Below are positions 30,550-59,618 of a stretch of DNA of 64,000 nt, in pieces. Source of the stretch: an uncultured Acidobacteriota bacterium (GTDB taxonomy: Bacteria; Acidobacteriota; Thermoanaerobaculia; UBA5066; Gp7-AA6); NCBI GenBank assembly GCA_963725095.1, contig CAVRXJ010000007.1:107287-171286 (forward strand), read 5' to 3'. The translations under genes were made by a program, and so were the position numbers. The notes beneath the pieces are model-generated. The model saw only the letters and a list, made by a program, of their open reading frames with translations. It did no database searches and had not been told where the DNA came from. Within the stretch, counting starts at the first letter, position 1, and each line of letters begins with the position of its first letter.

Positions 30550-30563
30550 ATGACGCCCGTCAT
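30550..30563. promoter_or_regulatory. Motif B site, Crp/Fnr-type (ATGACGCCCGTCAT)
   Basis: 5-4-5 palindrome centred 41.5 bp upstream of the 30598 ATG. Confidence 0.75.
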
Positions 30564-30597
30564 GGGAGCCCGAAGCCATCCGGGTTGAAATCAGGGC

Positions 30598-32370
30598 ATG
30601 AGCCGCACCGCTTTCGACCCGACCCTTCCCGTCCGCGAGCTGATCTCCCGGTACGCCGTCGCGAGGTCGGTCCTTGCTTCCCACGGCCTGGACACCTGCT
30701 GCGGCGGCGAGCACCCCCTCGCCCAGGCCTGCGCCGCCAAGGGAGTGTCTTTGCCGCGGGTCCTCGCCGATCTGGAATCCGCGCAGCGCTTCGCCGAATC
30801 GACCAGCCTCGTGCCGCCGACGATGTCGATCCGGGAGCTGCGCCGGCGCTTTCCCGCCACGATCCCCGTGCTCGCGCGCTACGGACTCGGCGACTGCGGG
30901 GGCGAGGAGGGTCCCGATGAGCCGCTCGCCTGGTTTGCGACGGTGCACCAGCTCCCCTTGGACGAGTTCCTCCGCGAGGTGCGGGAGGCGGCCTCTCGAG
31001 AGGTCTCGTCGGCGCCGCCGGCCGCCACGGCGGGGTCTTCCCTTCCCTTCGCGCCGCACTTCATCCTGGGATCGCTCTTCCTGACGCTGACGCTCGGCGC
31101 CACGACCGGCATGGTGAACCTGCTGCGGATCGCGGCCGGGGGCGACGTTCCGATCTCGCACCGCCAGATCCACGGTCACACACAGGTGCTCGGGTTCGCG
31201 GCGCTGTTCCTGATGGGGATCGCCTTTCACGCGCTGCCGCGCATCCTCGGGATCGGAAGCGAACGCCCGCGCGCCGCGCGGCCGGCCTTCTGGCTCATGT
31301 TCCTGGGCGTGATCCTGCGCAACGTCGGCCAGCCGTACAACGTCGACGCCGCGGGGCGCCTGCTCAGCCTGGCTTCCGCGGCGATGGAAGGCGTCGCCGG
31401 TTTTCTCTTCGCACGCTTCGTCTTCGCGGCCCTTTCCCGCGCGCGCTCGGGAAAGTACGGGCCTGCCGATCCGCTCCTGCGGTTCGTCCGGGCCGGAACG
31501 GTCTATTTCCTCGTCGCGCTCGGATGGAACGCCGCTCAGGGAATCTGGCTGGCCGGCCACTTCGAGACGGCGCTGCCGGTCTCGTTGACCGAGCCGTTCT
31601 ACTTCGTGTCGCTCTACGGATTCCTGCTCGCGTGGGTCTTCGGCTTCGGCAACCGCGTCGTCTCACTCTTCCTCGGCGTCGGTCCGGCCCGCAAGGGATC
31701 GCCGGACGCGGCTCTCCTCCTGCAGGCCGCGGGCGTCGCGCTCTTCCTGGCGTCGGCCGCACCGGGAATCACTCTGTCTTGGGCCCTCGTGCTGCGCGAC
31801 GCCGGTCTCACCGCCGTGTCCCTCTCCGCGCTCGCCTTCCTCGCCGGCCACGGCTTCCTCTGGCGCCGCTCGAACCTGCCCGCGCTGCGCACGCCCGGTC
31901 ACCCGACCCTCGCGATCCGGGCGGCCTTCGGCTGCCTCGGGCTCTGGGCGGTCCTGGAGGTCGCGGCCGTGACCGTCTCCCGGGCGACGAGCTTGCCCGC
32001 GCAGAACCTCTGGTGGTCCGATGCCGCCCGACATGTCTTCACCGTGGGTTTCGTGACCCTCTTGATCGTCGGCATGAGCCTGCGGATCCTTCCGGTCTTC
32101 TCGGGGAAGGCCCTCTGGTCTCCGCGGCTGGCGCTCGCAACCTACGCGCTCCTGCTCGCCGGCGTCGCGCTGCGCCTCCTGCAGTACCCAGGAGCCTTCT
32201 GGCCGGTCTTCTACAAGGCGGGGTCCTTCATGGGAATCCCCGTCGTGCTGGCGCTCCTGCTCTTCACCTTCAACCTCTTCCGGACCATGCGGGGGGGCGC
32301 CCGGCCGCCCTCGCGAGCGCCCCGCTCGCCGGCCGCGCCGGCCTTCCTTTCGACGCTTCCCGTGCGCTAG
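30598..32370 (+). CDS. NnrS-family membrane protein with N-terminal ScdA_N (DUF542)-like domains
   Basis: GLDTCCGG..L..AC and a second GLGDCGG domain; QIHGHTQVLGF, DAARHVFTVGF, GMSLRILP; many TM helices. Confidence 0.8.
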   Translation: MSRTAFDPTLPVRELISRYAVARSVLASHGLDTCCGGEHPLAQACAAKGVSLPRVLADLESAQRFAESTSLVPPTMSIRELRRRFPATIPVLARYGLGDCGGEEGPDEPLAWFATVHQLPLDEFLREVREAASREVSSAPPAATAGSSLPFAPHFILGSLFLTLTLGATTGMVNLLRIAAGGDVPISHRQIHGHTQVLGFAALFLMGIAFHALPRILGIGSERPRAARPAFWLMFLGVILRNVGQPYNVDAAGRLLSLASAAMEGVAGFLFARFVFAALSRARSGKYGPADPLLRFVRAGTVYFLVALGWNAAQGIWLAGHFETALPVSLTEPFYFVSLYGFLLAWVFGFGNRVVSLFLGVGPARKGSPDAALLLQAAGVALFLASAAPGITLSWALVLRDAGLTAVSLSALAFLAGHGFLWRRSNLPALRTPGHPTLAIRAAFGCLGLWAVLEVAAVTVSRATSLPAQNLWWSDAARHVFTVGFVTLLIVGMSLRILPVFSGKALWSPRLALATYALLLAGVALRLLQYPGAFWPVFYKAGSFMGIPVVLALLLFTFNLFRTMRGGARPPSRAPRSPAAPAFLSTLPVR

Positions 32371-32382
32371 ACCGACAATCGC

Positions 32383-32417
32383 GATTTGCGATTCGAGATT
32401 TCCGATCTACGATTCGC
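32383..32417 (+). repeat. Five degenerate tandem heptamers (GATYYNN)
   Basis: GATTTGC GATTCGA GATTTCC GATCTAC GATTCGC. Confidence 0.6.
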
Positions 32418-32424
32418 CTTGCCG

Positions 32425-33621
32425 ATGTCCCCCATAGCGGATGAGGCGATCCACATCGTCGGGGCGGGGCCGGCCGGGCTGGCCGCGGCTGTGACCGTCG
32501 CGCGCGGCGGTCGGCGCGCGGTCGTTCACGAGCAGCGGCAGGACGTCGGCAGCCGGTTTCACGGCGATCTGCAGGGCATCGAAAACTGGACGACCCGGGA
32601 CGACGCCTTGGACGAGCTGCGCGCCTCGGGCATCGATCCCGCGTTCGGCGGACATCCGTTCCGTGAGGCCGCCTTCTACGACCCGGAAGGGCGCGAGTAC
32701 ACCTGCCGCTCGCCCACACCCATGTTCTATCTCGTCCGCCGGGGGCGCGAGCCGGACACGCTCGACCAGCGGCTCAAGACGCAGGCGCTCGCGGCCGGCG
32801 TCGAGATCCGGTTTCAGGACCCCGTTCGCCGGCTGCCCCAGGGCGGGATCGTGGCCGGCGGGCCGCGCGGATCCGACGCGATCGTCGTCGGCTACGTCTT
32901 CGAGACCCCCCGCGCCGACGGCGTCTTCGCCGTTCTCTCCGACCACCTCGCCCCTCGCGGCTACGCCTACCTTCTGGTTTCCCGCGGGCGCGGGACCGTG
33001 GCCACGTGCATCTTCGAAGACTTCCATCGCGAGAAGCTCTACCTGGAGCGAACCATCGCCTTCTTCCAGAAGAGGGCCGGCCTCGCAATGCGCCACCCCG
33101 TGCGCTTCGGCGGAACGGGCAACGTCCTGCTGCCCTCCACGGCACGGCACGGGAACATCCTGTTCGCCGGCGAGGCGGCGGGCTTTCAGGACGCGCTGTG
33201 GGGGTTCGGAATCCGCATCGCGATGCTTTCGGGCCATCTCGCGGCCCAGGCCCTGCTCGCCGGTGCGCCCGGCGACTACGACCGGCTCTGGCGCCGCCGA
33301 CTGGGCGACCTGGTGCGGGTCTCGATCGTCAACCGGTACCTGTTCGACCGGATGGAGGACCGCGGCTACGCGAGGCTCATGCGCTCGATCGGGCGCGCGG
33401 GCGACACGCGGCAGTGGTTGCACCGCCACTATGCACCGTCGCTCGGAAAGCGGCTGCTCCTCGCCCTCGCGCGCCGCGCCGCGCGTCCCCGGCGCGACCC
33501 GCCGGGGTGCACCGTTTCCGGATGCGACTGCACCTGGTGCCGCGAGCACCCGCAGGCGGACGTCCGCGTGCCGTCGCAGCGGGAAGCCCGGCTCGCATCG
33601 GCGGCCGGCACGCTCCTCTAG
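32425..33621 (+). CDS. Geranylgeranyl-reductase-like FAD-dependent oxidoreductase
   Basis: IVGAGPAGL, APRGYAY, FAGEAAGFQD.LWGFGI..A..SG; C-terminal CTVSGCDCTWC. Confidence 0.75.
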   Translation: MSPIADEAIHIVGAGPAGLAAAVTVARGGRRAVVHEQRQDVGSRFHGDLQGIENWTTRDDALDELRASGIDPAFGGHPFREAAFYDPEGREYTCRSPTPMFYLVRRGREPDTLDQRLKTQALAAGVEIRFQDPVRRLPQGGIVAGGPRGSDAIVVGYVFETPRADGVFAVLSDHLAPRGYAYLLVSRGRGTVATCIFEDFHREKLYLERTIAFFQKRAGLAMRHPVRFGGTGNVLLPSTARHGNILFAGEAAGFQDALWGFGIRIAMLSGHLAAQALLAGAPGDYDRLWRRRLGDLVRVSIVNRYLFDRMEDRGYARLMRSIGRAGDTRQWLHRHYAPSLGKRLLLALARRAARPRRDPPGCTVSGCDCTWCREHPQADVRVPSQREARLASAAGTLL

Positions 33622-35325: not shown

Positions 35326-36009
35326 GTGCCGGAGCGCCCACCGGTCCCCTTCGACGCGATCCCGAGCCTGTCGCTGCTGACCCGGGACGAGCGCAGCAAC
35401 CTGGCGCCCCTGTGCGAGCTGACCGCCTGCGAGAAGGGCGCGACGATCTTCTCCGAGGGCGATCCGGCCGAGCGCATCTACTTCCTCTTCCTCGGCCGCG
35501 TCAAGATCGTGAAGGCCGGCCCCGAACGGGACCTCATCCTCGAGATCCTGGGCCCGGGCGAGCCCGTCGGGGCCGTGGCCGCCTTCGAGCGCCGTCCCTT
35601 TCCGGCGACCGCCGTCGCGCTCGAGCCCTGCGGTCTCGTGTCGATCCCGGAGAAGGCGTTCTTTCAGCTCATCGAGAAGCACCCCGAGATCACGCGCCGC
35701 CTGCTCGCGGGCCTGACGCTGCGCCTGATGGCCCTGAACCGCCGCCTCGCCGACATGACGGGAAACGTCGAGTACCGCGCCGCCCGGCTCTTCGAAACCC
35801 TCGCCGCGCGTCTGGGCAAGGAGGGCGCCGGCGGCGTCTTCGTGCCGCTGCCCCTTTCGCGGCAGGAAATCGCGGACCTCGTCGGAACCACCGTCGAAAC
35901 GGCGATCCGCATCATGAGCCGCTGGCAGAAGGAGGCCCTGGTGGAGACCGATCCGAAGGGGTTTCTGATCCGCGACCGCGCCGCCCTCCGGGCCATCGCA
36001 CCGGAGTGA
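35326..36009 (+). CDS. Crp/Fnr-family transcriptional regulator
   Basis: IFSEGDP, GRVKI, GPGEPVG; HTH LSRQEIADLVGTTVETAIRIMS. Alternative start at 35287. Confidence 0.95.
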   Translation: MPERPPVPFDAIPSLSLLTRDERSNLAPLCELTACEKGATIFSEGDPAERIYFLFLGRVKIVKAGPERDLILEILGPGEPVGAVAAFERRPFPATAVALEPCGLVSIPEKAFFQLIEKHPEITRRLLAGLTLRLMALNRRLADMTGNVEYRAARLFETLAARLGKEGAGGVFVPLPLSRQEIADLVGTTVETAIRIMSRWQKEALVETDPKGFLIRDRAALRAIAPE

Positions 36010-36028
36010 CCCGGGGCGGCCAGAAGCG

Positions 36029-37259
36029 CTAGGCCGCCCGCGGCCTCTTCTTCCAGGCCACGTAGGGGCGGGCGAGCTGGCGCAGGGACGCGAGCTTCCA
36101 CGCGTAGAGCTGCGACGCGAAGCTGCGGGGCGCCAGGTCCCTCGCCTCCTCCGGCTGCACGACGAGCGACACTTCGATCGGAAGCACGCCGACCGGAAGC
36201 CCCGCCCGGCGACACGCGTCCCACACGTGCGCGAAGACGTCTTTCATCGCCTCCGGGTCCGGGGGTTGCTCGTTCTCGAGCTCGCTGCCGATCGTCGGCC
36301 GGAAGATGCACACGGTCGGAAACGCGCCCGCCGCGACGATCCGGTCGATGCCGCGCTTGGTCGCGGCGATCGGCTCGAGACCGGCGATGATTTCACCGGA
36401 GACGCGGCCGCGTCCGAGCCGGCGCGCCGTGTATTCCATCGCGTCGAAGAATCCCCGCTGCCCAAGCGTCGCCGCCTTTCCCGGGCAGAGGCGGGCGAAC
36501 ACCGCGGGATCCTCGAACTCGTAGCAGAAGGAGAAGTGGTCGGCACCGGCCTCGATCAGGGCGTCGTACTCGAAGAACTTGTGGCGCGGCACGGGCATGC
36601 ACTGCACGCCGATGAACCCGCCGACCTGCTCGCCGCAGCGCCTTCACGAAGGGTTCGCACTGCCGCAGCCCGTGGATCGCCTCGAGCTTGTCCACTTCCT
36701 CGTAGTGGTATCCCGTGTTCAGGTGCGTGAAGATCGCGCCTGAACCGTCGCGGGCCGCCTGCGCCACCTCGACCACGTCTTCGACCTTCTTGCGAGCCTG
36801 CTCCGACACGCCCAGGTTCTTGCCGGTCGTGCAGAACTTGCAGGCGAGCGACGGCGTCGAGGCCCAGTAGAGACACCGGTTGGAGACGTAGACGCCGAGA
36901 TAGTTTCCCTGCAGCACGCCGATGCGGCTCATCTCCGCCCCCGAGGAGGTGCGCCGCGAGTACCAGTCGGGCTCCTTCGGGATCTGAACCGGATAGGCGT
37001 CGCCGTGGCCCTCGTCCAAAACTTCGTAGGCCTCGCCGGACTTGACGAGACGAAACGGTGACGCGGCGGCGAAACGCTCGACGACCGGCACGTTGACCCA
37101 GATCGGTTTGCGGGGAGCCGGGATCACGATCTCGAGCCCCGAGCCGAGCCCCGCGCGTGTGCGCGATATCCGGCGGCCGTCCTCGCCGACTTCGCAGGAG
37201 GCGTCGATCCGGATTCCGCGGCAGAACAACTCGATCTCGAGCTCGACCGGCGCCAGCAT
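36029..37259 (-). CDS. Radical SAM protein with CX10CX2C motif (frameshift ~36635)
   Basis: RTRAGLGSGL, CLYWASTPSLACKFC, LCPGK, IIAGLEP, CIFRP; resembles MSMEG_0568/biotin-synthase-related groups (from memory). Confidence 0.8.
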
Positions 37260-37295
37260 CACCGGAAGGCTAACCGGAGCCCCTGCGGTGCCGCC

Positions 37296-37309
37296 ATGAT
37301 GCAGATCAC
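37296..37309. promoter_or_regulatory. Fnr-type / motif B variant site (ATGATGCAGATCAC)
   Basis: TGAT-N4-ATCA core centred about 43 bp upstream of the radical SAM ATG; TAGCCT -10 present. Confidence 0.6.
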
Positions 37310-37331
37310 CCAGAAGGCCACCCGTTCCATT

Positions 37332-37347
37332 TGATGGATTTGCCTCA
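37332..37347. promoter_or_regulatory. Motif A site (TGATGGATTTGCCTCA)
   Basis: Degenerate copy in the divergent radical SAM / nos-operon spacer. Confidence 0.5.
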
Positions 37348-37435: not shown

Positions 37436-37449
37436 ATGACGCCCGTCAT
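37436..37449. promoter_or_regulatory. Motif B site (ATGACGCCCGTCAT)
   Basis: Identical to 30550-30563; upstream of the operon leading to nosZ. Confidence 0.75.
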
Positions 37450-37490: not shown

Positions 37491-37727
37491 ATGAGCGGCC
37501 ATCGAAACAAGGCAGCATCCCAACCCAACGCGCCGGGGACCGATTTTCTCTCTCGCGGCGATGTCGCCCGGCTCTTCGGTGTGTCCGTGTCGACCGTGAC
37601 GCGATGGGCACGACTGGGGCTGCTGAAGACCGTCCGCACGCCGGGCGGCCACTACCGCTTCCCCGCGGAGGAAACCCGCCGCGCGGCGGGCCGCCCGGGG
37701 GCCGCCGAGCTGGTGAGGCTCGACTGA
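37491..37727 (+). CDS. Small BldC/excisionase-like DNA-binding protein
   Basis: LSRGDVARLFGVSVSTVTRWARLG..RTPGGHYRF; RBS GGAGG. Confidence 0.88.
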   Translation: MSGHRNKAASQPNAPGTDFLSRGDVARLFGVSVSTVTRWARLGLLKTVRTPGGHYRFPAEETRRAAGRPGAAELVRLD

Positions 37728-37729
37728 GC

Positions 37730-39664
37730 ATGGCGATTCCGATTCGGCTTCCGGACCTCGCGCACTGGAAGGCGCAGGTGAAGTGCCAGGTGGCCTGCCC
37801 CGTCCTGACCGACGCGGGGCGCTACGTCCAGCTGATCGCCGAAGGCCGCGACGAAGACGCCTTCCTGGTCGCGCGCGCGCCGAATCCCTTCGCCTCGGTC
37901 TGCGGCCGCGTCTGCGCCGCGCCGTGCGAAGACGCCTGCCGCCGCGGGGTGATCGATGCGCCGATCGCCATCCGCGCGCTCAAGCGATTCGTCACGGAGG
38001 GCTACGGCGTCGAATCCGTGCGCCCCGATACGCAGAACCGCCTGCGGGAGTCGTTGGTCGCCGAGGGAAATCGGTACCCCGGCCATCTGCCCGTTTACGG
38101 AGGGGCCGCGGCCGCCCCGGCCAGCTCCGGAAGGAAGGTCGCCGTGATCGGCGCGGGACCGGCGGGCCTCTCGGCTGCGCACGACCTGGCCCTGCTCGGG
38201 TACGCCGTCACGGTCTTCGAGGCGTCCGAAGAGCCGGGCGGCATGATGCGGTTCGGCATCCCCGAATACCGGCTGCCCCGCACGCTGATCCGCGCCGAGA
38301 TCGACAAGATCCTCTCGCTCGGCGTCGACCTGAAGCTGAAGACCCCGCTCACTCCCGAATTCGGCCTGGCGCAACTTCGCGCGCAGGGGTTCGTTTCGGT
38401 CTTTCTCTCGATCGGCGTCTCCAAGGGGCGCGACCTCCAGGTGCCGGGCGTCGAGCTGGACGGCGTCGTCAAGGCGGTCGACTACCTCTTGAACGTCAAT
38501 CGCGGGTACCGCATGGACATGGGCCAGCGGGTCGTCGTGATCGGCGGAGGGTTCGTGGCTTTCGACGCCGCCCGCACCGCGCTGCGACTCGGACGAAAGG
38601 ATCTCGGGGCGGATCTCGAGCGCATCGACGCCCTGGGCGATCACAACCTCAAGGAGGCGCTCGACTCCGCCCGCGCGGCCCTGCGCGGCGGAGCCACCGA
38701 GGTCACGATCGTCTCCCTCGAGAGCTTCGACGAAATGCCCGTTTTGAAGACGACTCAGGGGCACGAAGAGTTCGAGGAAGCCCAGAAGGAAGGGGTCGCC
38801 TTCGTTCCCCGCCGCGGGCCGCACCGCTTCCTCGGGGACGGGAAGCTGTCGGCCGTGGAGTTGAAGAGCGTCGTCTCCGTCTTCGACGCAAACGGCCGCT
38901 TCGCGCCGGCCTACGACGAGCAGGATGTGACGCGCATCGCGTGCGATGCGTGCATCCTGGCGATCGGCCAGCAGCCCGACCTCTCGTTCCTCAAGCCGGA
39001 GGACGGCGTCGCCCTGACGCCCGGAGGGACGATCCGGGTCGATCCGGTCACGCTGGCCGCGTCGGCTCCGGGCGTCTTCGCCGGGGGCGATGTCGCCTTC
39101 GGGCCGCGCAACCTCATCGAGGCCGTCGCCAACGGCAAGCGGGCCGCCCGCTCGATCCACGAGCACCTCTCGCGCCCGGCGGCTGCGCTCACGACGCTGC
39201 TCGAGATCGAGAAACTGCCCACCGCGGGTTACCGGATGATCGCGGGGTTCGAAGTGTCCGACCGCGAGGCGGCGCCCACGCTCGACCTCGGGCGCCGCAC
39301 GGGAATCGCGGAAGTCGAAACGGGCTACGGGCCGGAGCAGGCGCGGCAGCAGGCCGCGCGGTGCCTGGTCTGCCACGTCCAGACGATCTACGACCCCGAG
39401 GCCTGCGTCCTCTGCAACCGCTGCGTCGATGTGTGCCCGGAGTACTGCCTGGCGATCGTCCCCTTCGAGGCGTTGGACTTGCCCGAGACCGAGCGGGAGA
39501 TCCTCGCCGCGCGCGCCCAGGCCGATGGACTTCCCCTGTCCGCCATGGTCAAGGACGACGACCGCTGCATCCGGTGCGGGCTCTGCGCCATCCGCTGCCC
39601 GACCGACGCCATGACGATGGAACGCTTCACGATCACGGAACGATTTGCCGCCGCGGCCGGGTGA
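37730..39664 (+). CDS. GltD/NfnB/DsrL-like Fe-S flavoprotein, NAD(P)H oxidoreductase with C-terminal 2x[4Fe-4S] domain
   Basis: CQVACP, CGRVCAAPCEDAC, GAGPAG, GIPEYRLP, GGGFVA, FAGGD, RCLVC, CVLCNRCVDVCP, CIRCGLCAIRCP. Confidence 0.9.
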   Translation: MAIPIRLPDLAHWKAQVKCQVACPVLTDAGRYVQLIAEGRDEDAFLVARAPNPFASVCGRVCAAPCEDACRRGVIDAPIAIRALKRFVTEGYGVESVRPDTQNRLRESLVAEGNRYPGHLPVYGGAAAAPASSGRKVAVIGAGPAGLSAAHDLALLGYAVTVFEASEEPGGMMRFGIPEYRLPRTLIRAEIDKILSLGVDLKLKTPLTPEFGLAQLRAQGFVSVFLSIGVSKGRDLQVPGVELDGVVKAVDYLLNVNRGYRMDMGQRVVVIGGGFVAFDAARTALRLGRKDLGADLERIDALGDHNLKEALDSARAALRGGATEVTIVSLESFDEMPVLKTTQGHEEFEEAQKEGVAFVPRRGPHRFLGDGKLSAVELKSVVSVFDANGRFAPAYDEQDVTRIACDACILAIGQQPDLSFLKPEDGVALTPGGTIRVDPVTLAASAPGVFAGGDVAFGPRNLIEAVANGKRAARSIHEHLSRPAAALTTLLEIEKLPTAGYRMIAGFEVSDREAAPTLDLGRRTGIAEVETGYGPEQARQQAARCLVCHVQTIYDPEACVLCNRCVDVCPEYCLAIVPFEALDLPETEREILAARAQADGLPLSAMVKDDDRCIRCGLCAIRCPTDAMTMERFTITERFAAAAG

Positions 39665-39678
39665 AGGAGGCACACGCG

Positions 39679-40179
39679 ATGACCAAGGACCGAAGGGAAT
39701 TCCTGGTGAGGCTCGGAATCGGCAGCGGCATCGCGGCCCTCGGCGCGCAGACCGTCGCCTCGATGCGTTCGCTCGTGCCCAATGTCTCCTACGACGCGCC
39801 GACGACGGTGAAAATCGGCATGCCGAACGATTTTCCGGACGGCCTGCAGTTTCTCCCGGACCAGCGCCTCTACGTTTTCCGCGAGGGCCGAACCTTCTAC
39901 GCCATTTCCGCTGTCTGCACCCACCTCGGATGCACCGTCCGCGCGGAGGCCCTTTCGCAGGTCGAGACGAAGACCATCGACGGAAAGCCGCTGCGCCTGA
40001 CGCACCGGTTCCTCTGCCCGTGCCACGGCTCGAAGTACAACGGTGACGGAACCAACGTCTCGGGTCCGGCCCCGCGCCCGCTCACCTGGTACCACCTCTC
40101 GGTCGCGCCGGAGGACGGTCAGCTGGTCGTCGACCTGGTGCGCCCCGTGGACCGTGACTTTCGCCTGACGGTCGCGTGA
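39679..40179 (+). CDS. Rieske [2Fe-2S] protein
   Basis: Tat DRREFL, CTHLGC, CPCHGS; RBS AAGGAGG. Confidence 0.93.
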   Translation: MTKDRREFLVRLGIGSGIAALGAQTVASMRSLVPNVSYDAPTTVKIGMPNDFPDGLQFLPDQRLYVFREGRTFYAISAVCTHLGCTVRAEALSQVETKTIDGKPLRLTHRFLCPCHGSKYNGDGTNVSGPAPRPLTWYHLSVAPEDGQLVVDLVRPVDRDFRLTVA

Positions 40180-40189
40180 AGGAGACCGC

Positions 40190-41533: not shown

Positions 41534-41534
41534 C

Positions 41535-45352: not shown

Positions 45353-45377
45353 CGCCGCGGAGGCCCGGTCCGGCGGG

Positions 45378-50116: not shown

Positions 50117-50179
50117 TGGCGGCCTCCCTTTCCGGAAATTCCTCACGGCAAGGCTCGCACGGTCTTCCGCCAGGGTCCT

Positions 50180-50193
50180 ATGATCTCGGTCAT
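50180..50193. promoter_or_regulatory. Motif B variant (ATGATCTCGGTCAT)
   Basis: ATGAY-N4-RTCAT palindrome upstream of the hemerythrin gene. Confidence 0.55.
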
Positions 50194-50860: not shown

Positions 50861-51328
50861 CTATTTCGAGATCGTGCGCAGGTCCAGCTCCAGAACGAGA
50901 CGCGGCGCGGGGGCGAAGCCCCGGCGTCCGAGGAACTGGTTCAGGTCGTGCTCGTCCCAGGCGACCTCCGTGCGGAGGCGCTCGATCCCGAAGGCCTGGA
51001 GGTTCTTCACGAGCTGGTCGACCAGGGCCGTCCCGACGCCGTGCCGCGCCTGGCCGGGGTCGACCAGGATCGTGTCCAGAACGGCGATCGGCTCGGGCAG
51101 GCCGAACTCGCCGTAGTGAAGCGAGCCCAGGACCGCGCCCACGAGGCAGCCGTCCACTTCGGCGCCGAGCGAGATGTTGAGGTCCGACTCCGCGAGCGCG
51201 CGCTTCAACTTCCCCTCGTACCACGCCGTCCGGTTGCGCCCCGTGATGGCATGGTCCATCCGGACGAGGCGCGCGGCGTCCTCCGGTCTCAGGCTGCGGA
51301 CGAGGATGTTCTCGGGCTCGCCGTCCAT
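50861..51328 (-). CDS. GNAT acetyltransferase at the end of the bcr operon
   Basis: ILVDP..ARHGVGTAL, GEFG, GFAPAP. Confidence 0.85.
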   Translation of the reverse strand: MDGEPENILVRSLRPEDAARLVRMDHAITGRNRTAWYEGKLKRALAESDLNISLGAEVDGCLVGAVLGSLHYGEFGLPEPIAVLDTILVDPGQARHGVGTALVDQLVKNLQAFGIERLRTEVAWDEHDLNQFLGRRGFAPAPRLVLELDLRTISK

Positions 51329-52159
51329 GCGGCACCTCCCATTCCGAGCTTCTCGCGGCGGAAACCGCCCCAGATCGCCGCGCCGATCGCGCCCGCGAAA
51401 GCCGAGAGCGGATGGCGAACGACCTCCACCGGCCGGACCCCGCCGCCCGCCTCCGGAGCCAGCGCGCGCGCGATCGCGGCGGCCAGGCCGTCGTCCGCCG
51501 CCAGGCCGCCGCTGACGAAGACGGCGCCCTCGACGCCGATCGACTGGAGCAGCCGGGCGAAACGTCCCGCCATGCTCTCGTGGATCCCGCGCAGGATGTT
51601 CGCGGCGGAGAGCCCTCGCGAGACCATGTTGATGACGTCGGTCTCGGCCAGCACCGCGCAGATCGAGCTGACGGTCTCCGGTTTCTCGGCACCGAGGGAG
51701 AGCGGCCCGATGTCCGCCTGCGAGACGCCGAGGTAGCGCGCGATGTTCTCGAGGAACTGGCCCGAGCCGGACGCGCACTGGCTCGTCATCTTGTAGCCGA
51801 GCACCTTGCCGCGCGCGTCCATCGCGACGGCGCGCGCGTGGAGCGCGCCGACGTCGAGAACCGCCCGCGCCCGCGGCTCGAGGAAGAGGGCACCGCGCGC
51901 GTGCGTCGTCATCCCGTAGAAGTGGCCCGTGGCGAACGGCGCGTCCTCGCCCTCCCCGGTCGTGGCGACGTAGTCGAGCTCGCGCGCCCCGGCTCCGGCG
52001 ACCGCCCCGGCAAACGCCTCGTCCACCACGTCGCCGATGCTGCGCCGCCGGACGCGCGCGACGCGTGTGGGAGAGAACCCGGTCGTCGCCCTCGCCGACC
52101 CGCATGACGACCGCCTTGACGGCGGCGGAGCCGACGTCGACGCCGGCCGTGACGCTCAC
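51289..52159 (-). CDS. bcrD: Benzoyl-CoA reductase subunit D (frameshift ~52060)
   Basis: AGVDVGS, YVATTGEG, GHFYGMTTHARGA, YKMTSQCASGSGQF, SSICAVLAETD. Confidence 0.92.
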
Positions 52160-53433
52160 GCCGCGGCTCCCCGGCGCGCGAAGTGCGCGGCGCCGAGCGC
52201 CCCCGTGTAGATGCTGTCGGCCGAGATGTTGATCGTGCGCTTCCCGTAGTTCTCGGCGACGAGCCCTTCGAGGGCCCGGACGGCAGCCGGGTTGCGCGCC
52301 ACGCCGCCCGTGAAGGTGAACTCGTCCGAGATCCCGCCCGAGCGCGCGAGCAGGCTCATCGCGCGCAGGATCACCGCGCGGTGAAGCCCCGCCAGGATGT
52401 CCTCGCGCTTCTCGCCGAGCGAAAGGCGCTCGCGCAGCTCTGCCCCCGCGAACACGGTGCAGGTGGAGCTGATCTTGACGGGGCGGCGGCTCGTCAAGGC
52501 GAGCGGCCCCAGCTCGTGCAGCCCCATGTTCATTTCGTCGGCGATGTAGCCGAGGTAGCGGCCGCAGCCGGCGGCGCACCGGTCGTTCATCTGAAAGCTG
52601 GTGACGATTCCCTGCGGGTCGACCTGGATCGCCTTGGTGTCCTGGCCGCCGATGTCGAGGACCGTCCGCGTGCTCGGGAAGAGGATGTGGGCCCCGAGGC
52701 CGTGGCAGAGGATCTCGGAGCGGATCTGCTCCTTGGGAAACGGCAGGCGCGCCCGGCCATATCCCGTGCCGACCGTGGCGCCAACCGGAAGCTCCGCCCC
52801 GACGGCCGCCTCGACGGCGGCCCGCACGGGGCTCTGCCCGCCCGCGCGCGAGAGGGCCTTGCCGATGTGCTCGCGAAAGCCGAGCTCCAGGGGCTCGTTC
52901 TCGACCCGGACGATGCACTTGTCGTAGAGGCCGATGAGCAGGTCGAAGGTGACGCCGCCCTCCTCCGCGAGCTCCTCGGCCAGGCGCGCGTACGCCGAGC
53001 CGGCCGCGTCACGGAAAAAGTCGGACCGCGCGGGCGGATCCGGGTCCGCGAAGCGCAGCTCCTCCTCGGCCGCGAAGCGCCGGAAGATCTCGCCGACCGA
53101 TTCGCCCGCCGCCCGGCGAAGGCCGGGGGCAACGCTCCGGCCGACTTCCTCCGCGATGCCCGCCTCGAGGCTCGCCAGCTGCACGAGCATCTGCTCGAGA
53201 CGAAAGGCGGCGAGGAGCCGCGACAGCGCTGCGCCACCCGCCGTCCTCTCGACCTCCCGCTGCAGGAGCCGGAAGCGCGCCGACACGAACGCCTCCGTGC
53301 GGGCCAGCTCGGCCGCCAGGTCGTAGTTCGAGCGCGAGTTCGTGATCCCCCGGCCCAGGACCTCTCCGCCCTCGTCCAGGACGACCGCCTTCGTGGTCGT
53401 CGAGCCGAGGTCGATGCCGACAAAGCAGTTCAC
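52156..53433 (-). CDS. bcrA: Benzoyl-CoA reductase subunit A
   Basis: FVGIDLGSTTTK, GITNSRSNY, IRSEILCHGLGAH, MNDRCAAGCGRY, SSTCTVFA. Confidence 0.93.
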   Translation of the reverse strand: MNCFVGIDLGSTTTKAVVLDEGGEVLGRGITNSRSNYDLAAELARTEAFVSARFRLLQREVERTAGGAALSRLLAAFRLEQMLVQLASLEAGIAEEVGRSVAPGLRRAAGESVGEIFRRFAAEEELRFADPDPPARSDFFRDAAGSAYARLAEELAEEGGVTFDLLIGLYDKCIVRVENEPLELGFREHIGKALSRAGGQSPVRAAVEAAVGAELPVGATVGTGYGRARLPFPKEQIRSEILCHGLGAHILFPSTRTVLDIGGQDTKAIQVDPQGIVTSFQMNDRCAAGCGRYLGYIADEMNMGLHELGPLALTSRRPVKISSTCTVFAGAELRERLSLGEKREDILAGLHRAVILRAMSLLARSGGISDEFTFTGGVARNPAAVRALEGLVAENYGKRTINISADSIYTGALGAAHFARRGAAA

Positions 53434-54713
53434 GCCGGCGCTCCCGCGCCCTGCGCGCCGGGCCTCGAGCATCTGGAAGTAGCTCTCCAGCCGGTTCTTC
53501 AGGTTCGCTGCCGAGAAGTAGCGCGCGTCGACGAGATCCGACTCGATGAAGGCTCCCGGCACGCCCGTCCGCCGCTCGACCTCGCGCAGGATCGGGAGCT
53601 GCCCCGCCGAGAACGAGTTGCACGACTTGACGGAGTGGATGAGGAAGCCGTCGGCCCGATATTCCTTCACGTAGGCCTCGAGCATCGCGACGCGCGAAGG
53701 CAGGTTCAGGTTCGTGTAGCAGCCGCTGCAGTAGTCGGCGAGCGTTCCGAGCGGATCGGCCGGGTCGTGGCGGAAGCCGAAGTCGTAGGTGCCGCCGACC
53801 TTGGAGTAGGTCGAAGCGACGGCCACCGCGCCCTCGTCGGCGAACATCCTCCAGAACTCGCGGAAGTGCGTCCAGTTGGGCGGCCCCTCGACGACGAGGC
53901 GGTACTTCTGGCGGTCGAGGCGTCCGGCGGGCGTTACGGGCCCCTCGCCGCGGGCGGCCCGCTCCTCGACCTCCTCGCGCAGCGCCCGGTAGTAGGCGGC
54001 CCCCTCGGGCGTCCCGCGGAACGCGGAGAAGATCGGCCCGACGTAGTAGACGGCGCCGAAGTAGGCGTCGATCGGGGATAGGCGTCTTCTTCGCCGACTG
54101 CAGGACCGCCACGAGGTCATCCTCGGCGGCCGCGGAGAGCGCGAGGCTCTCGCGCAGCTTCTCTTCGTCGTAGCGCCGGCCGGTGGCCTTCTCGAGGGCC
54201 GGGATCAGGGTCTCGCGGATCTGCCGGGCGACGTAGGCGCGCTGCGCCGGCGTCTGCCTCCCGTCCCCCTGGTAGGGAACCTGCAGGAACACCGTCGGGC
54301 AGCCGTACTCCTCGCGCAGGAGCTCGAACCACTTCATGAAGGTGTAGCAGCCGGTGTAGGAGAGCAGCAGCAGGTCGGGCTTCGGCAGCCGCGTGCCGGT
54401 CGGACCGATGTTGCCGGCCTTCGACATCCCGATGTCGCACTTGACGTAGGAGCAGACGTCCTCCGAGTGGCCCGCCTTCTCCGCCGCCGCGATGTAGGCC
54501 TGGCTCTTGCCGCGCATCGCCGACTGCAGCGCGTTGATCTCGGGCAGCACGGGCAGCGCGCCGAAGGAGCGCACCAGCTCCGTCAGGTTACCCGGAACGA
54601 ACGTGTAGACGACCGGCTCGCCCGTCTCCGGGGCCGCTTCGAGCCGCCGGAAATGCTCCGCCAGCATCTCCTTCTGCAGCTCCATCGATCGGTCCTTCTC
54701 GACGTCGGACCAT
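53430..54713 (-). CDS. bcrB: Benzoyl-CoA reductase subunit B (frameshifted)
   Basis: TFVPGNL, HSEDVCSYVKCDIG, SYTGC, EGPPNW, CYTNL, SVKSCNSFSAGQ. Confidence 0.92.
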
Positions 54714-55891
54714 CAGACGCCTCCCCAGAGCTTGATCGAGTCGGCGAAGGTCCCCGCCTGCTCGCGGAACTGCTGGAACTGCCCGGTGTTCTCGGCGAAC
54801 TGGAAGGCGATGCAGGGGATGCCCGCCTCCTCGGCGCCCGCCCGCAGCATCGGCCGGTCGAGCAGCGCCGGATCGCAGAAGCTCGCCGCGGCGAAGATGA
54901 CGCCGTCCGCCTGCGCGGCGGCGACCCGCTCCCGGAGCAGGCGGCGCTTGCCCTCCGGATCCCCTTCGTAGAGCGTCGAGGTCTTCACGCGCGTGGCGGA
55001 CGAAGGCGCGCGCGAGGTTCTCGAGCGGATCGCCCTCCAGCGGGACGTCCGCACCGATCATCCGGTTGCCGAGCAGGAAGTCGTCGTCCACGATGAAGCA
55101 GCCGGCCCTCTCGATCGTCTTGATCAGGCCGAGCGGCGGCTGCTCGCAGAAGGCGCCCGACGACGATGACGCGGGCCCGGTCCCGCACGCGCGCCAGGCT
55201 CGTCTCCGGTGGCGGCCAGGTAGGCGCGCGCTTGCGTCGACGAACGTCCTCGAGCGGCACGACCTCGCCGGCGCGCATCAGCAGGTAGAGCTCCTCGGTC
55301 GGCACGCGCCACGGCGTCTCGCGGCGGACGCGGTAGAGCTCCCGCACGAGCGCGGCGCGCCTCGTTGTAGACGGCGATCGCCTCGCGCAGGCTCTCGGGC
55401 GTCGCGGGCGAGCCCGAGACCTCGGAGAGGTCGCGCCGCGAGCACCTCGAGCTCCTCCCGCCAGAACGCCGCCGCGAGGTCCGACGTCCGGCACCTGCGG
55501 CAGGTCGAGGTAGCGAACGTAGGTCTTCGGGTACGCGCAGCTGCCAGACTCCCGAGAGGTTGCGGATGACGTCGCAGGTCGCCGGAAAGAGCATCGCCGA
55601 CAGGAAGGCGAGGCGGCCGCGACTCCGCCAGCTCGACGACCGAGCGCGGGAGGTGGCAGATGTAGGACTGGTAGAAGGCGTCGCCGCGGATGATCTCGAG
55701 GCGATCGCCGCCGCCGTGGATGCCGACCGGAAGCATCCCGGCCGCGCGAATGACCTCGCGCGGGGCGTAGACGGGCAGGTAGCCGGCGGCCTTCCGGCCG
55801 GGGGCCTCCGTCGAGCCAGCGGCGGGCCTGCGTGAACTCGAGGTCGTCGCTGACGTTCGGCGCCCAGTCGACGATCTCGCGTCCGCGTCAT
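54713..55891 (-). CDS. bcrC: Benzoyl-CoA reductase subunit C (many frameshifts)
   Basis: GDAFYQSYICHLPRS, CDVIRNLSG, FCEQPP, SFCDPALLD, FREQAGTFADSIKLW. Confidence 0.92.
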
Positions 55892-56665
55892 GCGTCGCTC
55901 CAGACGGGCTGGCGTCGCTCGAGGAAGGCGGTCAGGCCCTCGACCGGGTCCCGGTGCGCCATCAGGTCCTCGAGATAGAGCCTCTCGAGCTCGGGCAGAT
56001 CGACCGCGAGCGACCGCGCGAGCAGCCTGCGCGACGCTTTCCACGCGATCCGGACGGCGACGGCGGACTTTCCCGCCAGCGCTCGTCGAACCACTCTAGG
56101 AGCAGCGCGGCGGCCACGTCGTTCGTGCATCGGTCGGCGAGACCCCAGGCCACCGCGCCCTGCGCGTCGTAGGTATCGCCCGAAAGGATGATCTGCGTGG
56201 CGCGAGCCCCCGACACACGCCAGGGCAGGGCGATCGCCGCGACCGGCGGAAACACGCCGAGCTTGGTCTCCGGCACGCCGAACCGCGCCGACGGCTCGCA
56301 GAGGATCAATCCGCACCAGAGCGCCAGCTCGAACGCCCCGCCCAGACACTGCCCGCGCACCAGAGCGGCCGTCGGCACGCCGAGCGCCTCGAGATCGCGA
56401 AAGAGGCCGTGAAAGGCGGAGCAGCAGCTCCACCCACATGTCCCGGCAGATGCTCGCCGACGGAGGCTCCGAAGCTGAAATGCTCCCCCGCGCCCTCGAA
56501 GACGACGAGCTTCACGGGCCCCGGATGCGCGCGGAGATCTCCGCCAGCCGCGCGCGAATCGCCGTGATCATTTCGAGGTCGAGCACGTTGCCCTTGGGCC
56601 GGTCGAGCAGGATCCGCTGGATCTGGCCCCCGCGTTCTGCGACTGCATCGGATCGGAGTCGTCAC
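55888..56665 (-). CDS. dch: Cyclohexa-1,5-diene-1-carbonyl-CoA hydratase (frameshifted)
   Basis: Crotonase fold RPKGNVLD, HFSFGASV.EH, GQCLGG..EL, PETKLGVFPP; directly upstream of bcrC. Confidence 0.85.
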
Positions 56666-57763
56666 GCAGCCTCCTTTCCCGGCACGAGCACCGATGCGCC
56701 GGTCGACCCGATGCGCGCGGACCTCCTCGAGGACCGCCGCGACGTCGGATAGCGGACGCAGGATGGCGTGCGACACGACGTCGATGCGGCCGGCGAGCAC
56801 CTTTTCGAGCAGCGCCGGGTAGAGCCCGGGCGCGCAGCCCCAGTTCCCGAGCGCCCGGGCGTCGAACGCCATCAGGTTCGAGAGCCGCAGCGACGCCGCC
56901 TCGAGCGTGAAGCCGACGACCGACAGCGTCGCGCCGTAGCCGAGCAAGGCCCAGGCCGTCTGCTGTCCGGCGACTGTTCCCGAGCATTCGAAAATGGACC
57001 AACCCGTATCGGGCGCGCCGGCCGACTGCGCAAATTCGGCGATCCGGGCGCGCAGCTCCTTGCCCGGCAGGGTCCGCGGATCGAGGGAAAGGCCCACTCC
57101 CATCGCGGGAGCCGCTCCGAGGCGCCGGGCGTCGACGTCGAGACCCACGACCGCCGCGCCCACGTCGGCCGCGACCTGCGCGGCGAAGGTCCCGACGCCC
57201 CCGAGGCCGACGACGATCGCGAGGCTCCCCGGGAGAGGCCCGAGCGCTGGACGGCCTGGAAGGCCGTCGAGACGGCGTCGGCGACGACGGCGAGGTGCCG
57301 CAGCGTCAACCCGCTCGACGCGTGGAGCGGCGCGTCCGGGTCCTCCCCCGCCCCCGGCACCGCGCACAGGAACCGCCCCGGCAGCACGACGCGCGTCGCA
57401 AAGCCGCCGTCGCGGTCGTTGCCCGGCATGATCTGCGACCGGCAGATCGTTTCCCGGCCGGAGCGGCACAGCGCGCACTCCCCGCACGGCAGCACGGCGG
57501 GCACGACGACGGCGCGCCCGACGAGCGCCGCTGTGTCGCGACCCGGCGTCTTCGACGTGGCCGCTGATCTCGTGGCCGAGGATCAGGGGCGGCGGATGCC
57601 GTGTGCGAACCCCATCGTGGAGGAAACCGACGTCGGTGTGGCAGACGCCGCAGCCAGCGACTCGGATCAGCACGTCGTCGGCCGAGAGACGCGCGACGTC
57701 CCGCGAGACCGGGCGCAACGGCGCGCCCGCCTCCACCATCTCCCAGCCGGCGATCGTCGCCAC
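56662..57763 (-). CDS. had: 6-hydroxycyclohex-1-ene-1-carbonyl-CoA dehydrogenase (frameshifted)
   Basis: Zn-ADH GCGVCHTD, GHEISG, CGECALC, MPGNDRDGGFA, RLSNLMAFDARALGNWGC. Confidence 0.88.
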
Positions 57764-57767
57764 GGTC

Positions 57768-58514
57768 CTATGCCCCCATGGCCTGCCCGCCGTCGACGGC
57801 GAGTGCCTGACCCGTGACGTGCGCCGCACCGGGGCCGGCGAAGAACGCCACCGCCTCGGCGACGTCCTCGGGCCGCGCCACGCGGCCCATCGGCGTCTCC
57901 GCGATCGCCCGTCGCCGGACCTCCTTCGGCAGAGAGGCCGTCATGGCCGTGTCGTGAACCCGGGCTCGACGAGGTTGACGGTCACACCGCTCCGCGCGAG
58001 CTCTTTCGCTGCGGAACGGGCGAGCCCGAGCAGGCCCGCCTTGGCCGCGGCGTAGTTCGCCTGGCCGAACTTGCCGCGCCGGCCGTTGATCGACGAGACG
58101 ATCACGACGCGCCCCGAGCGTTGCCGGCGGAACGCCGGCGCCGCGGCGCGTAGATAGTGGGCGGCTCCGGACAGATCGACCGCAACGACCCGATCCCACT
58201 GCGCGTCCGTCATCTTCCAGAGCACCGCGTCCTGGCAGATCCCCGCGGCCACGACCAGCAGGTCCAGGCGCCCGCGCCTGGCAACGAGGTCCGCAACGGT
58301 CCGGCGCGCCGCGGCGGCGTCCGAGACGTCGACGCCGTACAGGTCGGCCGAAGCGAAGCGTTCTCCGAAGTCGCGCGAGGCGCCGGGCGTCCGCGTCGGC
58401 AATCGCCACGAGCGCCCCCGCCGCCGCGAGCCGGCGGGCGCAGGCGAGACCGATCCCGCCTGCCCCTCCCGTGACGAGCGCGACCCGGCCGGAGAGCTCG
58501 CGTTGCCTCGTCAC
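57768..58514 (-). CDS. Short-chain dehydrogenase/reductase, FabG-like (frameshifted)
   Basis: VTGGAGGIG, SSING, YAAAK, VTGQ..VDGG. Confidence 0.85.
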   Translation of the reverse strand: MTRQRELSGRVALVTGGAGGIGLACARRLAAAGALVAIADADARRLARLRRTLRFGRPVRRRRLGRRRGAPDRCGPRCQARAPGPAGRGRGDLPGRGALEDDGRAVGSGRCGRSVRSRPLSTRRGAGVPPATLGARRDRLVDQRPARQVRPGELRRGQGGPARARPFRSERARAERCDRQPRRARVHDTAMTASLPKEVRRRAIAETPMGRVARPEDVAEAVAFFAGPGAAHVTGQALAVDGGQAMGA

Positions 58515-59569
58515 TCGAACGCGGCTCCGCAGAGGCCGCAGTGCGTGAAGGAGGCGGGCAACCCCGCGCCGCCGCACTTGCCGCACGAGCGAACGTGCGC
58601 CCCCCAGGGCGTCTCGGGCGAGCCTCCCGGCTCGACGGCGCGCCGGCGCACCGAAGCGAAATCGACCGGACGCTTCTCGGCGAAAGCGCGCATCCCCTCG
58701 AACGGCTCGTAGTCGGTGTAGTGGAGCGCGAGCCAGTCCTGCGCGTGCCGCACGGTCAGGGCCCACGAGAAGTCCTTCCAGAAGTTTGCCTGCTGCTTCG
58801 TGTAGCGCACACATTCCGGGAACGTGCGCAGCAGCTCCTGCGCCAGCCGGTCCACCTCCTCATCGAGGCGGGACAGGTCGATCGTGAACCCGTCCACCCC
58901 CTTCTGTGCCTTCTCGATCTGCTCCCCCGTGGCGTTCTCGAGGAACGAGCCGCCTCGCTTGACCGACGGAGCAACGCGGTTGACGAGTCCCCACTCCAGG
59001 GCGAGCCGCGCCGGAATGGGCCGGTTGGTGAAAAGCATCTCGCGCGCCCGCTTGTCTCCCACCGTGATCGGAAGCCATTGCGTGGCGCCACCACAGGCGA
59101 CCGAGCCGACGCGGACGCCGACCTGCCCGACGGAGGCATGTTCGGCCATCACGGCGAGATCGCACGCCAGCACAGACTCGTTGCCTCCGCCGACGGCGAC
59201 ACCGTTGATGCGCGCTACGACGGGCTTGCCGGTCGAGAGGATCGCGTCGATGTAGGCGCGGAAGAGGGCCATGTACTTCCAGTAGTCACGCGGCGCACCG
59301 ATGTAGGTTTCGGCGTACTCCTTGACGTCCCCTCCGGTGCAGAACGCCCGGTCGCCGGCCCCGGTCAGGACGATGACGCCAACCGAATCGTCGAAGGACG
59401 CGTCCTTGAGCGCCGACGCCAACTCCTCCAGACACGCCGTCGAGTAGGCGTTGTAGCGGAAAGGGCGGTTGATCGTGATCCGGGCGACGCCAGACCGCTT
59501 TTCATACAGGATCTCGCGGAACGAGAAGCTCTCGCCGGGGCGGGGCTCGAAGGCGGGAGGCCGACTCAT
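58511..59569 (-). CDS. oah: 6-oxocyclohex-1-ene-1-carbonyl-CoA hydrolase
   Basis: YNAYST, AFCTGGDVKEYAE.Y, GGGNE, GGATQWLP, C-terminal CGKC..CGLC; first gene of the bcr operon. Confidence 0.85.
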   Translation of the reverse strand: MSRPPAFEPRPGESFSFREILYEKRSGVARITINRPFRYNAYSTACLEELASALKDASFDDSVGVIVLTGAGDRAFCTGGDVKEYAETYIGAPRDYWKYMALFRAYIDAILSTGKPVVARINGVAVGGGNESVLACDLAVMAEHASVGQVGVRVGSVACGGATQWLPITVGDKRAREMLFTNRPIPARLALEWGLVNRVAPSVKRGGSFLENATGEQIEKAQKGVDGFTIDLSRLDEEVDRLAQELLRTFPECVRYTKQQANFWKDFSWALTVRHAQDWLALHYTDYEPFEGMRAFAEKRPVDFASVRRRAVEPGGSPETPWGAHVRSCGKCGGAGLPASFTHCGLCGAAFE

Positions 59570-59604
59570 CGAAACCAACCTAGCCCCCCGGGTCGGCCGA
59601 GGAC

Positions 59605-59618
59605 ATGACGGGCGTCAT
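59605..59618. promoter_or_regulatory. Motif B site (minus strand ATGACGCCCGTCAT)
   Basis: Exact reverse complement of 30550 and 37436; centred 42.5 bp upstream of the oah ATG, with a TAGGTT -10. Confidence 0.75.

Follow-up and report, generated by a model that had tools for sequence, protein, structure and literature searches.

A predicted pairing of a Crp/Fnr-type regulator with an ATGAY-N4-RTCAT operator at nitrogen-oxide genes of uncultured Acidobacteriota

We analysed a 64,000-nt stretch of DNA from an uncultured Acidobacteriota bacterium (assembly GCA_963725095.1, contig CAVRXJ010000007.1, positions 107,287 to 171,286; hereafter the window), in which one 14-bp palindrome, ATGACGCCCGTCAT (motif 1), recurs upstream of genes for nitrous oxide (N2O) respiration, nitric oxide (NO) stress and anaerobic aromatic degradation. 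We propose, with a probability of roughly 0.75, that motif 1 is the site of the Crp/Fnr-superfamily regulator encoded at 35326..36009 (+), and that this protein would act there by class II activation of a small nitrogen-oxide regulon. What the genomes show directly is where the sites lie, that they are conserved, how far they stand from a -10-like signal and that they occur together with the regulator gene. The source bin of the window (G000) is 67.6% complete with 69.4% G+C. Other G numbers denote related genomes and f1 to f3 their families; counts across relatives take in the unpublished genomes G005, G020, G022 and G030.

An earlier reading of the window from its letters alone (the sequence-only reading) had reported three exact copies of the 14-mer, and we recovered all three: at 30550..30563 (+), in the promoter of a ScdA_N-DUF1858-NnrS fusion gene; at 37436..37449 (+), before an operon of bldC-like, gltD-like and nos genes; and at 59605..59618 (-), in the promoter of the oah-bcr operon of the benzoyl-CoA pathway. 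No copy occurred in 100 dinucleotide shuffles. The two variants named in that reading are also present, namely ATGATGCAGATCAC at 37296..37309, with three mismatches, in the promoter of a variant radical SAM (rSAM) gene, and ATGATCTCGGTCAT at 50180..50193, with one mismatch, in that of a hemerythrin gene. The matrix score of the rSAM variant (14.0) is unremarkable alone, as 90 genome-wide matches score at least that high. In the whole 4.0-Mb assembly we found only seven copies of ATGAC-N4-GTCAT, five of them intergenic by a rough gene model based on codon usage, in which 24% of bases fall between genes. A fourth identical ATGACGCCCGTCAT lies on contig C8, inside a second copy of the rSAM-to-nosZ region. 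The intergenic perfect hits in G000 are five in or copied from the window and one located 190 nt before a HEAT-repeat gene; four of the six other perfect hits fall in open reading frames (ORFs), for a MacB-like permease, type II secretion system (T2SS) protein F, an ABC permease and a product of unknown family.

The distances proposed earlier from site centre to start codon held for the NnrS fusion (41.5 nt to the ATG at 30598) and for oah (42.5 nt to the ATG at 59569), while the figure of about 43 for the rSAM gene applies if translation starts at ATG 37259 (43.5) and not if it starts at GTG 37262 (40.5). The site at 37436 does precede the nos operon, as had been claimed, but the first gene of that operon encodes a 77-aa BldC-like helix-turn-helix (HTH) protein, and nosZ starts 5.4 kb downstream of the site. 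The claim that sites are oriented with the downstream gene describes the GCCC centre as seen here, an orientation that is not conserved in relatives.

The three exact sites have no flanking sequence in common beyond the 14 bases, an observation that bears on whether they might have no regulatory role and be chance matches, or what is left of a duplicated promoter or mobile repeat. Identical central bases in a single orientation are unusual for independent sites (the chance of three sites sharing one central tetramer is ~0.003, a post hoc figure based on the tetramer frequencies of 46 relatives' sites), and contig C8 holds a second, 89-91% identical copy of a promoter region. Against such an origin stand the unrelated flanks, the lack of any copy in the shuffles and the retention of the site before orthologs in other genera while centre and flanks change, and we give it almost no credence.

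Retention of this kind supports our proposal that motif 1 is an operator. We looked for the regulator and four target genes in 40 related genomes that belong to three families of a single order, and read the upstream DNA with the pattern NTGAY-N4-RTCAN, which leaves the outer bases free. The site is kept before orthologs of the NnrS fusion gene in 20 of 21 relatives (130-nt window), of the gltD-like gene of the nos operon in 15 of 16 (330-nt window) and of the hemerythrin gene in 9 of 13 (160-nt window); before oah it occurs in only 3 of 10, all of this genus (130-nt window). The exception for the NnrS fusion (G026) has a site about 270 nt upstream, and that for the gltD-like gene (G011) has a one-mismatch copy. 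Although the outer positions were free, 44 of the relatives' 46 sites begin with A and all 46 end with T, while the central four bases vary and the flanks have diverged too. As judged from these alignments, the functional unit is ATGAY-N4-RTCAT. Motif 1 was absent from the 420 nt upstream of all 12 paralogous gltD-like genes (45-54% identity) found elsewhere in these genomes. At the rSAM promoter, the element ATGATGCA(A/G)ATCA(C/T) recurs in relatives.

To place the sites relative to promoter signals, we aligned 52 promoters on the site; G000 contributed five, with the C8 copy among them. A stands at position +24 after the site in 34 of the 52 and T at +28 in 42, whereas the positions around them are 6-35% A+T. 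The bases at -11 and -7 are the two best-kept positions of the sigma-70 -10 hexamer. If the site centre is at -41.5, then +24 and +28 would be -11 and -7, which is class II geometry. In the window, a -10-like hexamer, TGAAAT (30586..30591, +), lies 22 nt after the NnrS-fusion site and 6 nt before the ATG; the rSAM promoter has TAGCCT at +24 to +29 with the GTG/ATG at +34/+37, the site at 37436 is followed by GATCGT at +23 to +28, and the oah promoter has TAGGTT at +23 to +28 with the ATG at +36. Of the 21 NnrS-fusion orthologs, 14 have their first in-frame ATG at +35 and two more at +36, and no Shine-Dalgarno (SD)-like word lies between site and ATG. Transcripts of the NnrS fusion, oah and rSAM genes would thus be predicted to begin at the start codon, i.e. 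to be leaderless. Counting -41.5 from start codons, as was done earlier, makes sense only if the ATG marks the transcript start, as predicted from the correctly spaced -10-like signal. In two family-f3 genomes the -10 spacing is the same but a leader with GGAGG is added, so the site is anchored to the promoter rather than the start codon; short leaders with SD words are present in the nos and hemerythrin promoters. Conservation and -10 spacing both back the earlier assignment of the 5-4-5 palindrome as a putative class II Crp/Fnr-type site. Among 643 genes of G000 with unambiguous ATG starts, an SD-like word at -18 to -5 was present in only 202, a hint, given crude gene calls, of low SD use in this genome.

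The same geometry bears on whether the regulator might instead repress from these sites, with a dimer over -48 to -35 blocking polymerase until a signal arrives. The site does abut or overlap the -35 position, and HcpR sites that overlap promoter boxes have been interpreted as repression in PMC545781. However, the distance to the -10 signal is the same, to the base pair, in four gene families; this suits activators, because these have to contact polymerase, whereas a repressor can be placed variably. The poor -35 hexamers (TGGACG, TAGGAC and TGTCCT) also suggest activator dependence. We therefore regard repression as unlikely and favour activation.

The regulator ORF opens at 35287, and GTG 35326 is the likelier start because homologs, of which a large protein collection holds 1726 at an E value of 1e-20 or better, are mostly 227-229 aa long. 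Its membership of the Crp/Fnr superfamily follows from Pfam, with PF00027 (cNMP_binding) at 72 bits, PF13545 (HTH_Crp_2) at 57 and PF00325 at 35, all above cut-offs. The recognition helix is TTVETAIRIMSRW; the ETAIR noted earlier stands, within VETAIRIM, and TT[IV]ET[AS]IR is invariant in 30 orthologs. This helix (E-T-A-I-R) and the half-site (ATGAY) led us to reject membership of the FNR/DNR/FixK group as defined by an E-x-x-S-R helix and a TTGAT half-site. Curated NCBIfam models all score far below their cut-offs: CRP (NF008732) 66.7 vs 266, FixK 53.9 vs 300 and Fnr (NF008365) 46.8 vs 228. The closest solved relative is M. tuberculosis CRP (E 2e-24), followed by DNR (1e-16) and FNR (1e-10). 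Relative to M. tuberculosis CRP, GELSIF/PRTSSA has become GAVAAF/PFPATA and the R of RETV has become V, and in the orthologs the residues with which CRP holds cAMP are replaced by Ala, Phe and Pro. A CRP-type cAMP receptor was rejected on these grounds, its cAMP phosphate contacts (Glu, then Arg-Ser/Thr) being replaced and its first helix contact being V instead of Arg.

Among the 30 orthologs the only conserved Cys is C43 (29 of 30; C48 and C115 vary), and no His is conserved. The FNR cluster needs four ligands, three N-terminal Cys and one central Cys. These data speak to the idea that the regulator is an FNR-type oxygen sensor and its regulon a simple anaerobic switch, for which one could cite the anaerobic character of the targets (N2O respiration, benzoyl-CoA reductase and a radical SAM enzyme) and a helix that keeps the Glu and Arg of FNR. 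A single conserved Cys in place of four cluster ligands and the below-cut-off score of the Fnr model led us to reject that candidate as quite unlikely; in addition, the broader anaerobic set (hydrogenase, pyruvate:ferredoxin oxidoreductase (POR), universal stress proteins (USPs) and bcr) carries a different palindrome, motif 2, described below, and not motif 1. As it has a single conserved Cys and its cAMP residues are replaced, we conclude that the regulator is neither an FNR oxygen sensor nor a cAMP receptor. In content its regulon resembles those of DNR and NnrR, which are recognised by nnrS, nos, nir or nor: sites stand before the NnrS fusion and before an operon ending in nosZDFL, with no nir or nor seen among the targets.

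Several lines of evidence connect this protein, rather than another, with motif 1. In G002 and G016, each 97% complete, no other protein scores above the HTH_Crp_2 cut-off. A weak HTH_Crp_2 match on contig C29 was considered as a second Crp/Fnr protein of G000 and rejected as an Lrp/AsnC-type protein, and two other genes with cNMP domains that we read have no Crp-type HTH, showing, by eye, a TPR-like N-terminus or an FHA-type C-terminus. Across families f1 and f3, we found the regulator and the NnrS fusion together in 22 relatives and neither of them in nine. In G002 and G003 the regulator gene lies 8 nt after the NnrS-fusion gene, and therefore would be autoregulated there. From these comparisons, the regulator is probably the only credible binder of motif 1 that we found.

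We then scanned the phylum, using one genome per species, for loci encoding relatives of the regulator and, within 6 kb, an A-type box (ATGAY-N4-RTCAT) or a T-type box (TTGAY-N4-RTCAA). An A-type box was present in 33 of the 36 loci recovered (36-82% identity; Thermoanaerobaculia, Vicinamibacterales, Binatia and others) and a T-type box in none. Even the most distant homologs, from Binatia, combine the helix ETVIR with the boxes ATGACAACCGTCAT and ATGACAATCGTCAT. FNR Ser212 contacts the outer T of the half-site. The pairing of helix and A-type box supports the view that Ile for Ser in the recognition helix goes together with A for T at the outermost base, and bears out, as far as co-occurrence can, the suggestion in the sequence-only reading that ETAIR could explain ATGAC in place of TTGAT.

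It is distinctly improbable that the palindrome is bound by another protein, such as the BldC-like HTH protein, a PAS-LuxR protein encoded at 60254-60952 or an unrecognised factor, with the Crp/Fnr gene a mere neighbour. In favour of another binder, G028 (98% complete) keeps ATGATGCAAATCAT and a TAGTCT -10 signal upstream of its rSAM gene and has no Crp/Fnr HTH that we could find, and the left half of the rSAM variant, TGATGC, is a motif-2 half-site. However, the TGA-N6-TCA core has Crp/Fnr geometry, and the A-type box accompanies an E-x-x-I-R regulator in nearly all phylum loci, down to 36% identity. The bldC-like gene, which comes first in the nos-containing operon of family f1, is absent from family f2, whose genomes have the site directly before the gltD-like gene. 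Motif 2 is spaced differently and occurs in genomes that lack the regulator.

The regulon predicted for the Crp/Fnr-type protein is small. A large regulon was dropped, as one- or two-mismatch matches show no intergenic enrichment. In G002 and G016, 19 of 20 further matches that we fetched lie inside ORFs without a -10 pair, and the exception precedes a gltD-like paralog. In family f1, the 19 genomes with the regulator carry 13.5 copies of the pattern on average and six without it carry 8.7, compared with 0-6 per genome for a reversed-pattern control (raw counts, with genome size not factored in). The conserved regulon would therefore appear to consist of the NnrS fusion, rSAM, gltD-like/nos and hemerythrin genes.

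Certain observations weigh against our proposal. The relatives are kin, such that conservation counts overstate independence, and some of the 36 phylum loci come from genomes already among the G-labelled relatives. The exact pattern occurs inside genes 6-12 times per genome even where the regulator was not found, as a result of which the bare pattern is not diagnostic and the pattern in promoter context is. One-mismatch copies are intergenic in 17 of 97 cases, without enrichment between genes. The rSAM-promoter element (window 37296-37315) is conserved over ~20 bases, ATGATGCARATCAYCCAGAA, centre included (L184 2583, L185 2316 and L186 2546), unlike an ordinary Crp/Fnr site, and G028 has no HTH_Crp_2 match in spite of its kept rSAM site. 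The other cNMP-domain genes that we read number only two, one in G028 and one of eight in G002. A weak A(-11)/T(-7) excess, 6% vs 3%, is also present in 441 SD-less genes of G000, as defined by crude gene calls. The sensor domain offers no direct clue to the signal, and we found no nirK, nirS or hcp in G000 (67.6% complete), G002, G016 or G017.

Taking these points together, we infer from the sequences binding, activation rather than repression, and leaderless transcripts, and we propose the following mechanism. A dimer of the regulator would bind ATGAY-N4-RTCAT with its centre near -41.5, overlapping a weak -35 region, and would recruit RNA polymerase as in class II activation. Its helix keeps the Glu and Arg of the FNR E-x-x-S-R pattern with Ile for Ser, a change accompanied by A for T at the outermost base of each half-site. 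The local regulon would comprise the ScdA/DUF1858/NnrS fusion, the variant radical SAM gene, the bldC-like/gltD-like/Rieske-cytochrome/nosZDFL operon and the DUF2249-hemerythrin gene, with the oah-bcr operon recruited additionally in this genus alone. As the protein has neither an Fe-S cysteine cluster nor cAMP contacts, the signal would probably be a small ligand or cofactor reporting nitrogen-oxide stress or anoxia, as for DNR, NnrR, HcpR and Nss; that it is nitrogen oxides or anoxia we infer from regulon content only. With no nirK, nirS or hcp found in these four genomes, any NO would come from outside the cell. The only nirK among five genomes (G004:C126:3348-4250) lies ~1.4 kb upstream of an oah gene that bears motif 1.

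The sequence-only reading had proposed that one regulator co-activates electron-donor (aromatics) and acceptor (N2O) modules. This holds for a sub-lineage and not generally: counting G000, motif 1 is found in 4 of 11 oah promoters, all from one genus (G000, G003, G004 and G005 only). The oah promoter of G002 has a decayed copy of motif 1, and those of other genera have none. On this distribution, the link of the regulon to aromatic breakdown is a recent, local addition.

A second palindrome, TGATGCnnnnGCATCA (motif 2), is instead found upstream of oah in all 11 genomes (within 260 nt, up to two mismatches allowed), and also between the rSAM and nos genes and ahead of the hydrogenase operon. 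We counted 104 perfect copies in 41 genomes, compared with two for the reversed control. In the window, motif-2 sites lie at 16682, 29609, 37332 (TGATGGATTTGCCTCA, 37332..37347, rSAM/nos intergenic), 59654 (TGATGCAATCGCCTCA, 59654..59669, upstream of oah), 59746 (59746-59761, a second site before oah) and 61464; about 14 more on other contigs bring G000 to ~20 sites, nearly all intergenic. Their neighbours encode USPs, BON-domain proteins, Pyridox_ox_2, cytochrome c peroxidase, POR and a PAS-HisKA_3 kinase. Genomes without the regulator (G013, G019, G020 and G021) have two perfect sites each. Motif 2 looks like the mark of a general low-oxygen or dormancy programme under another factor. As a lead only, we note the PAS-LuxR protein (60254-60952) as a candidate binder: its gene adjoins oah in G002, G003, G004, G016, G017 and G024, and motif-2 sites lie just upstream of the PAS-LuxR copies in G017 and G024. 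Its presence does not cleanly track motif-2 counts, with two sites each in G013 and G014, which have no ortholog, and family-f2 genomes have motif-2 sites but PAS-LuxR homologs that are only 38-40% identical.

The remaining features of the window complete this description. The NnrS fusion protein (30598..32370, +; Pfam and NCBIfam) has 590 aa and is probably leaderless; its N-terminal ScdA_N is a RIC-type domain, and two families of the order share the fusion. A geranylgeranyl-reductase-like, FAD-dependent oxidoreductase found by profile search (32386..33621, +) is possibly co-transcribed with it, as judged from a 15-nt gap only. The rSAM gene (36029..37262, -) is NF045502-like by profile match and split by a frameshift; its promoter element also opens variable short ORFs beginning MMQI. 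Following the site at 37436 are, in order, the gene for the BldC-like, small MerR/excisionase-type protein (37491..37724, +; SD GGGAGG), genes for a gltD-like NAD(P)-binding Fe-S flavoprotein, a Rieske protein, a cytochrome b and a multihaem cytochrome c (37730..42662, +), Sec-type (clade II) nosZ (42809..45381, +; TIGR04246 matched in two frames, with a frameshift near residue 387), and nosD, an ABC ATPase gene (nosF-like), a nosL-like gene and further ORFs (45378..49402, +), among which we identified no nosY. Next come the gene for the RIC-like DUF2249-hemerythrin protein (49412..50146, -), the benzoyl-CoA pathway genes oah, SDR, had, dch, bcrC, bcrB, bcrA and bcrD (51289..59569, -; TIGR02259-02263, TIGR03189, TIGR03200 and TIGR03201; several frameshifted) and the gene for the PAS and LuxR(GerE) one-component regulator (60254..60952, -).

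Frameshifts are numerous in the assembly and split or fuse genes (window 25727-29866, 33638-35268, 36029-37262, 42809-45381 and 52156-56378), among them the hydrogenase genes, FTHFS, the rSAM gene, nosZ, bcrB and bcrC. The hydrogenase small subunit, large subunit and cytochrome b form a single 1379-aa frame, and FTHFS is spread over three frames. These frame changes look like assembly indels rather than decay, and because of their number we read start codons by hand. Contig C8 (10.35 kb, G000) is collinear throughout with window 35971-46417 at 89-91% nucleotide identity; it comes from a related strain that was binned together with this one, or else is a genuine second copy of that region.

Clade II nosZ-bearing Acidobacteriota were recently proposed as widespread soil N2O sinks (PMC13122619), in a paper that describes N2O reduction by Luteitalea pratensis and whose text makes no mention of regulators or promoters. 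The predicted regulator-operator pair offers a way to ask under what conditions these bacteria turn on N2O reduction, a marker by which co-regulated genes could be found in metagenomes and a natural test of one helix residue re-tuning Crp/Fnr specificity. The capture of the benzoyl-CoA operon would illustrate a small regulon growing, in one lineage, by gain of a single promoter site. More tentatively, and with clearly less than even odds, the E-x-x-I-R proteins may form a separate, phylum-spanning Crp/Fnr branch with its own recognition code, one that reports external NO or even N2O in hosts mostly devoid of nitrite reductase and operates jointly with motif 2. If so, these proteins would act as master switch for the N2O sink that acidobacteria form in soils, Ile for Ser would read an A:T pair at the outer base, and the TGATGCnnnnGCATCA operator would set a general low-oxygen programme.

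Among known systems, Crp/Fnr helix residues co-vary with box positions in the analysis of Rodionov et al. 2005 (PMC1274295), the text of which, apart from figures and supplements, is the source for the boxes and regulons compared here. In what we found of the literature, boxes are of the TTGAC type and no paper has an ATGAC/GTCAT box; Matsui 2013 (PMC3590769) makes no mention of Acidobacteria. HcpR1 of delta-proteobacteria, with the box wyTTGACnnnnGTCAArw, resembles our regulator as an FNR-like protein with no Cys cluster, a 5-4-5 box with C at position 5 and a small nitrosative-stress regulon, often encoded beside its targets (PMC1274295). The box described here differs only at the outer base, A and not T, with Ile in the helix for the Ser of the FNR group; the predicted targets are instead the NnrS fusion, nos and hemerythrin genes, and hcp (PF03063), by which an HcpR is recognised, was not found in G000 (67.6% complete), G002, G004, G016 or G017.

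DNR of Pseudomonas (box CTTGATnnnnATCAAG; TTGATnnnnATCAA) and NnrR of alpha-proteobacteria (box ctTTGcgnnnncgCAAag; TTGcgnnnncgCAA) are Crp/Fnr proteins that activate nir, nor, nos and nnrS in response to NO; the regulons of DNR, NnrR and NsrR include nnrS and nos, and nnrS occurs in several NO regulons (PMC1274295). DNR is also among the structural relatives of our regulator (E 1e-16), and some automatic JGI names of its homologs read 'nitrogen oxide reductase regulator', but the boxes of DNR and NnrR are different and the hosts here are mostly without nirK and nirS. Nss of Wolinella succinogenes is similar by description: in the part of PMC11539149 that treats it, Crp/Fnr proteins raise clade II NosZ on nitrate, NO or N2O in a non-classical denitrifier (Kern and Simon 2016, as cited there), although the phylum is another and the consensus is TTGA-N6-TCAA.

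E. coli FNR likewise uses a 14-bp 5-4-5 palindrome centred at -41.5 at class II promoters and has the helix pattern V-E-T-x-x-R, whereas the protein described here lacks the [4Fe-4S] cysteines, is paired with ATGAY and not TTGAT, and matches the FNR structure only at E 1e-10. Finally, Fnr-type control of benzoyl-CoA genes is already known: in the sections of PMC4424350 that describe them, AadR of Rhodopseudomonas palustris and AcpR of Azoarcus sp. CIB are Fnr-family regulators required for benzoyl-CoA pathway genes to be expressed anaerobically. Those two systems are oxygen-dependent, whereas the oah-bcr link described here occurs in 4 of 11 genomes and would run through the regulator of a nitrogen-oxide module.

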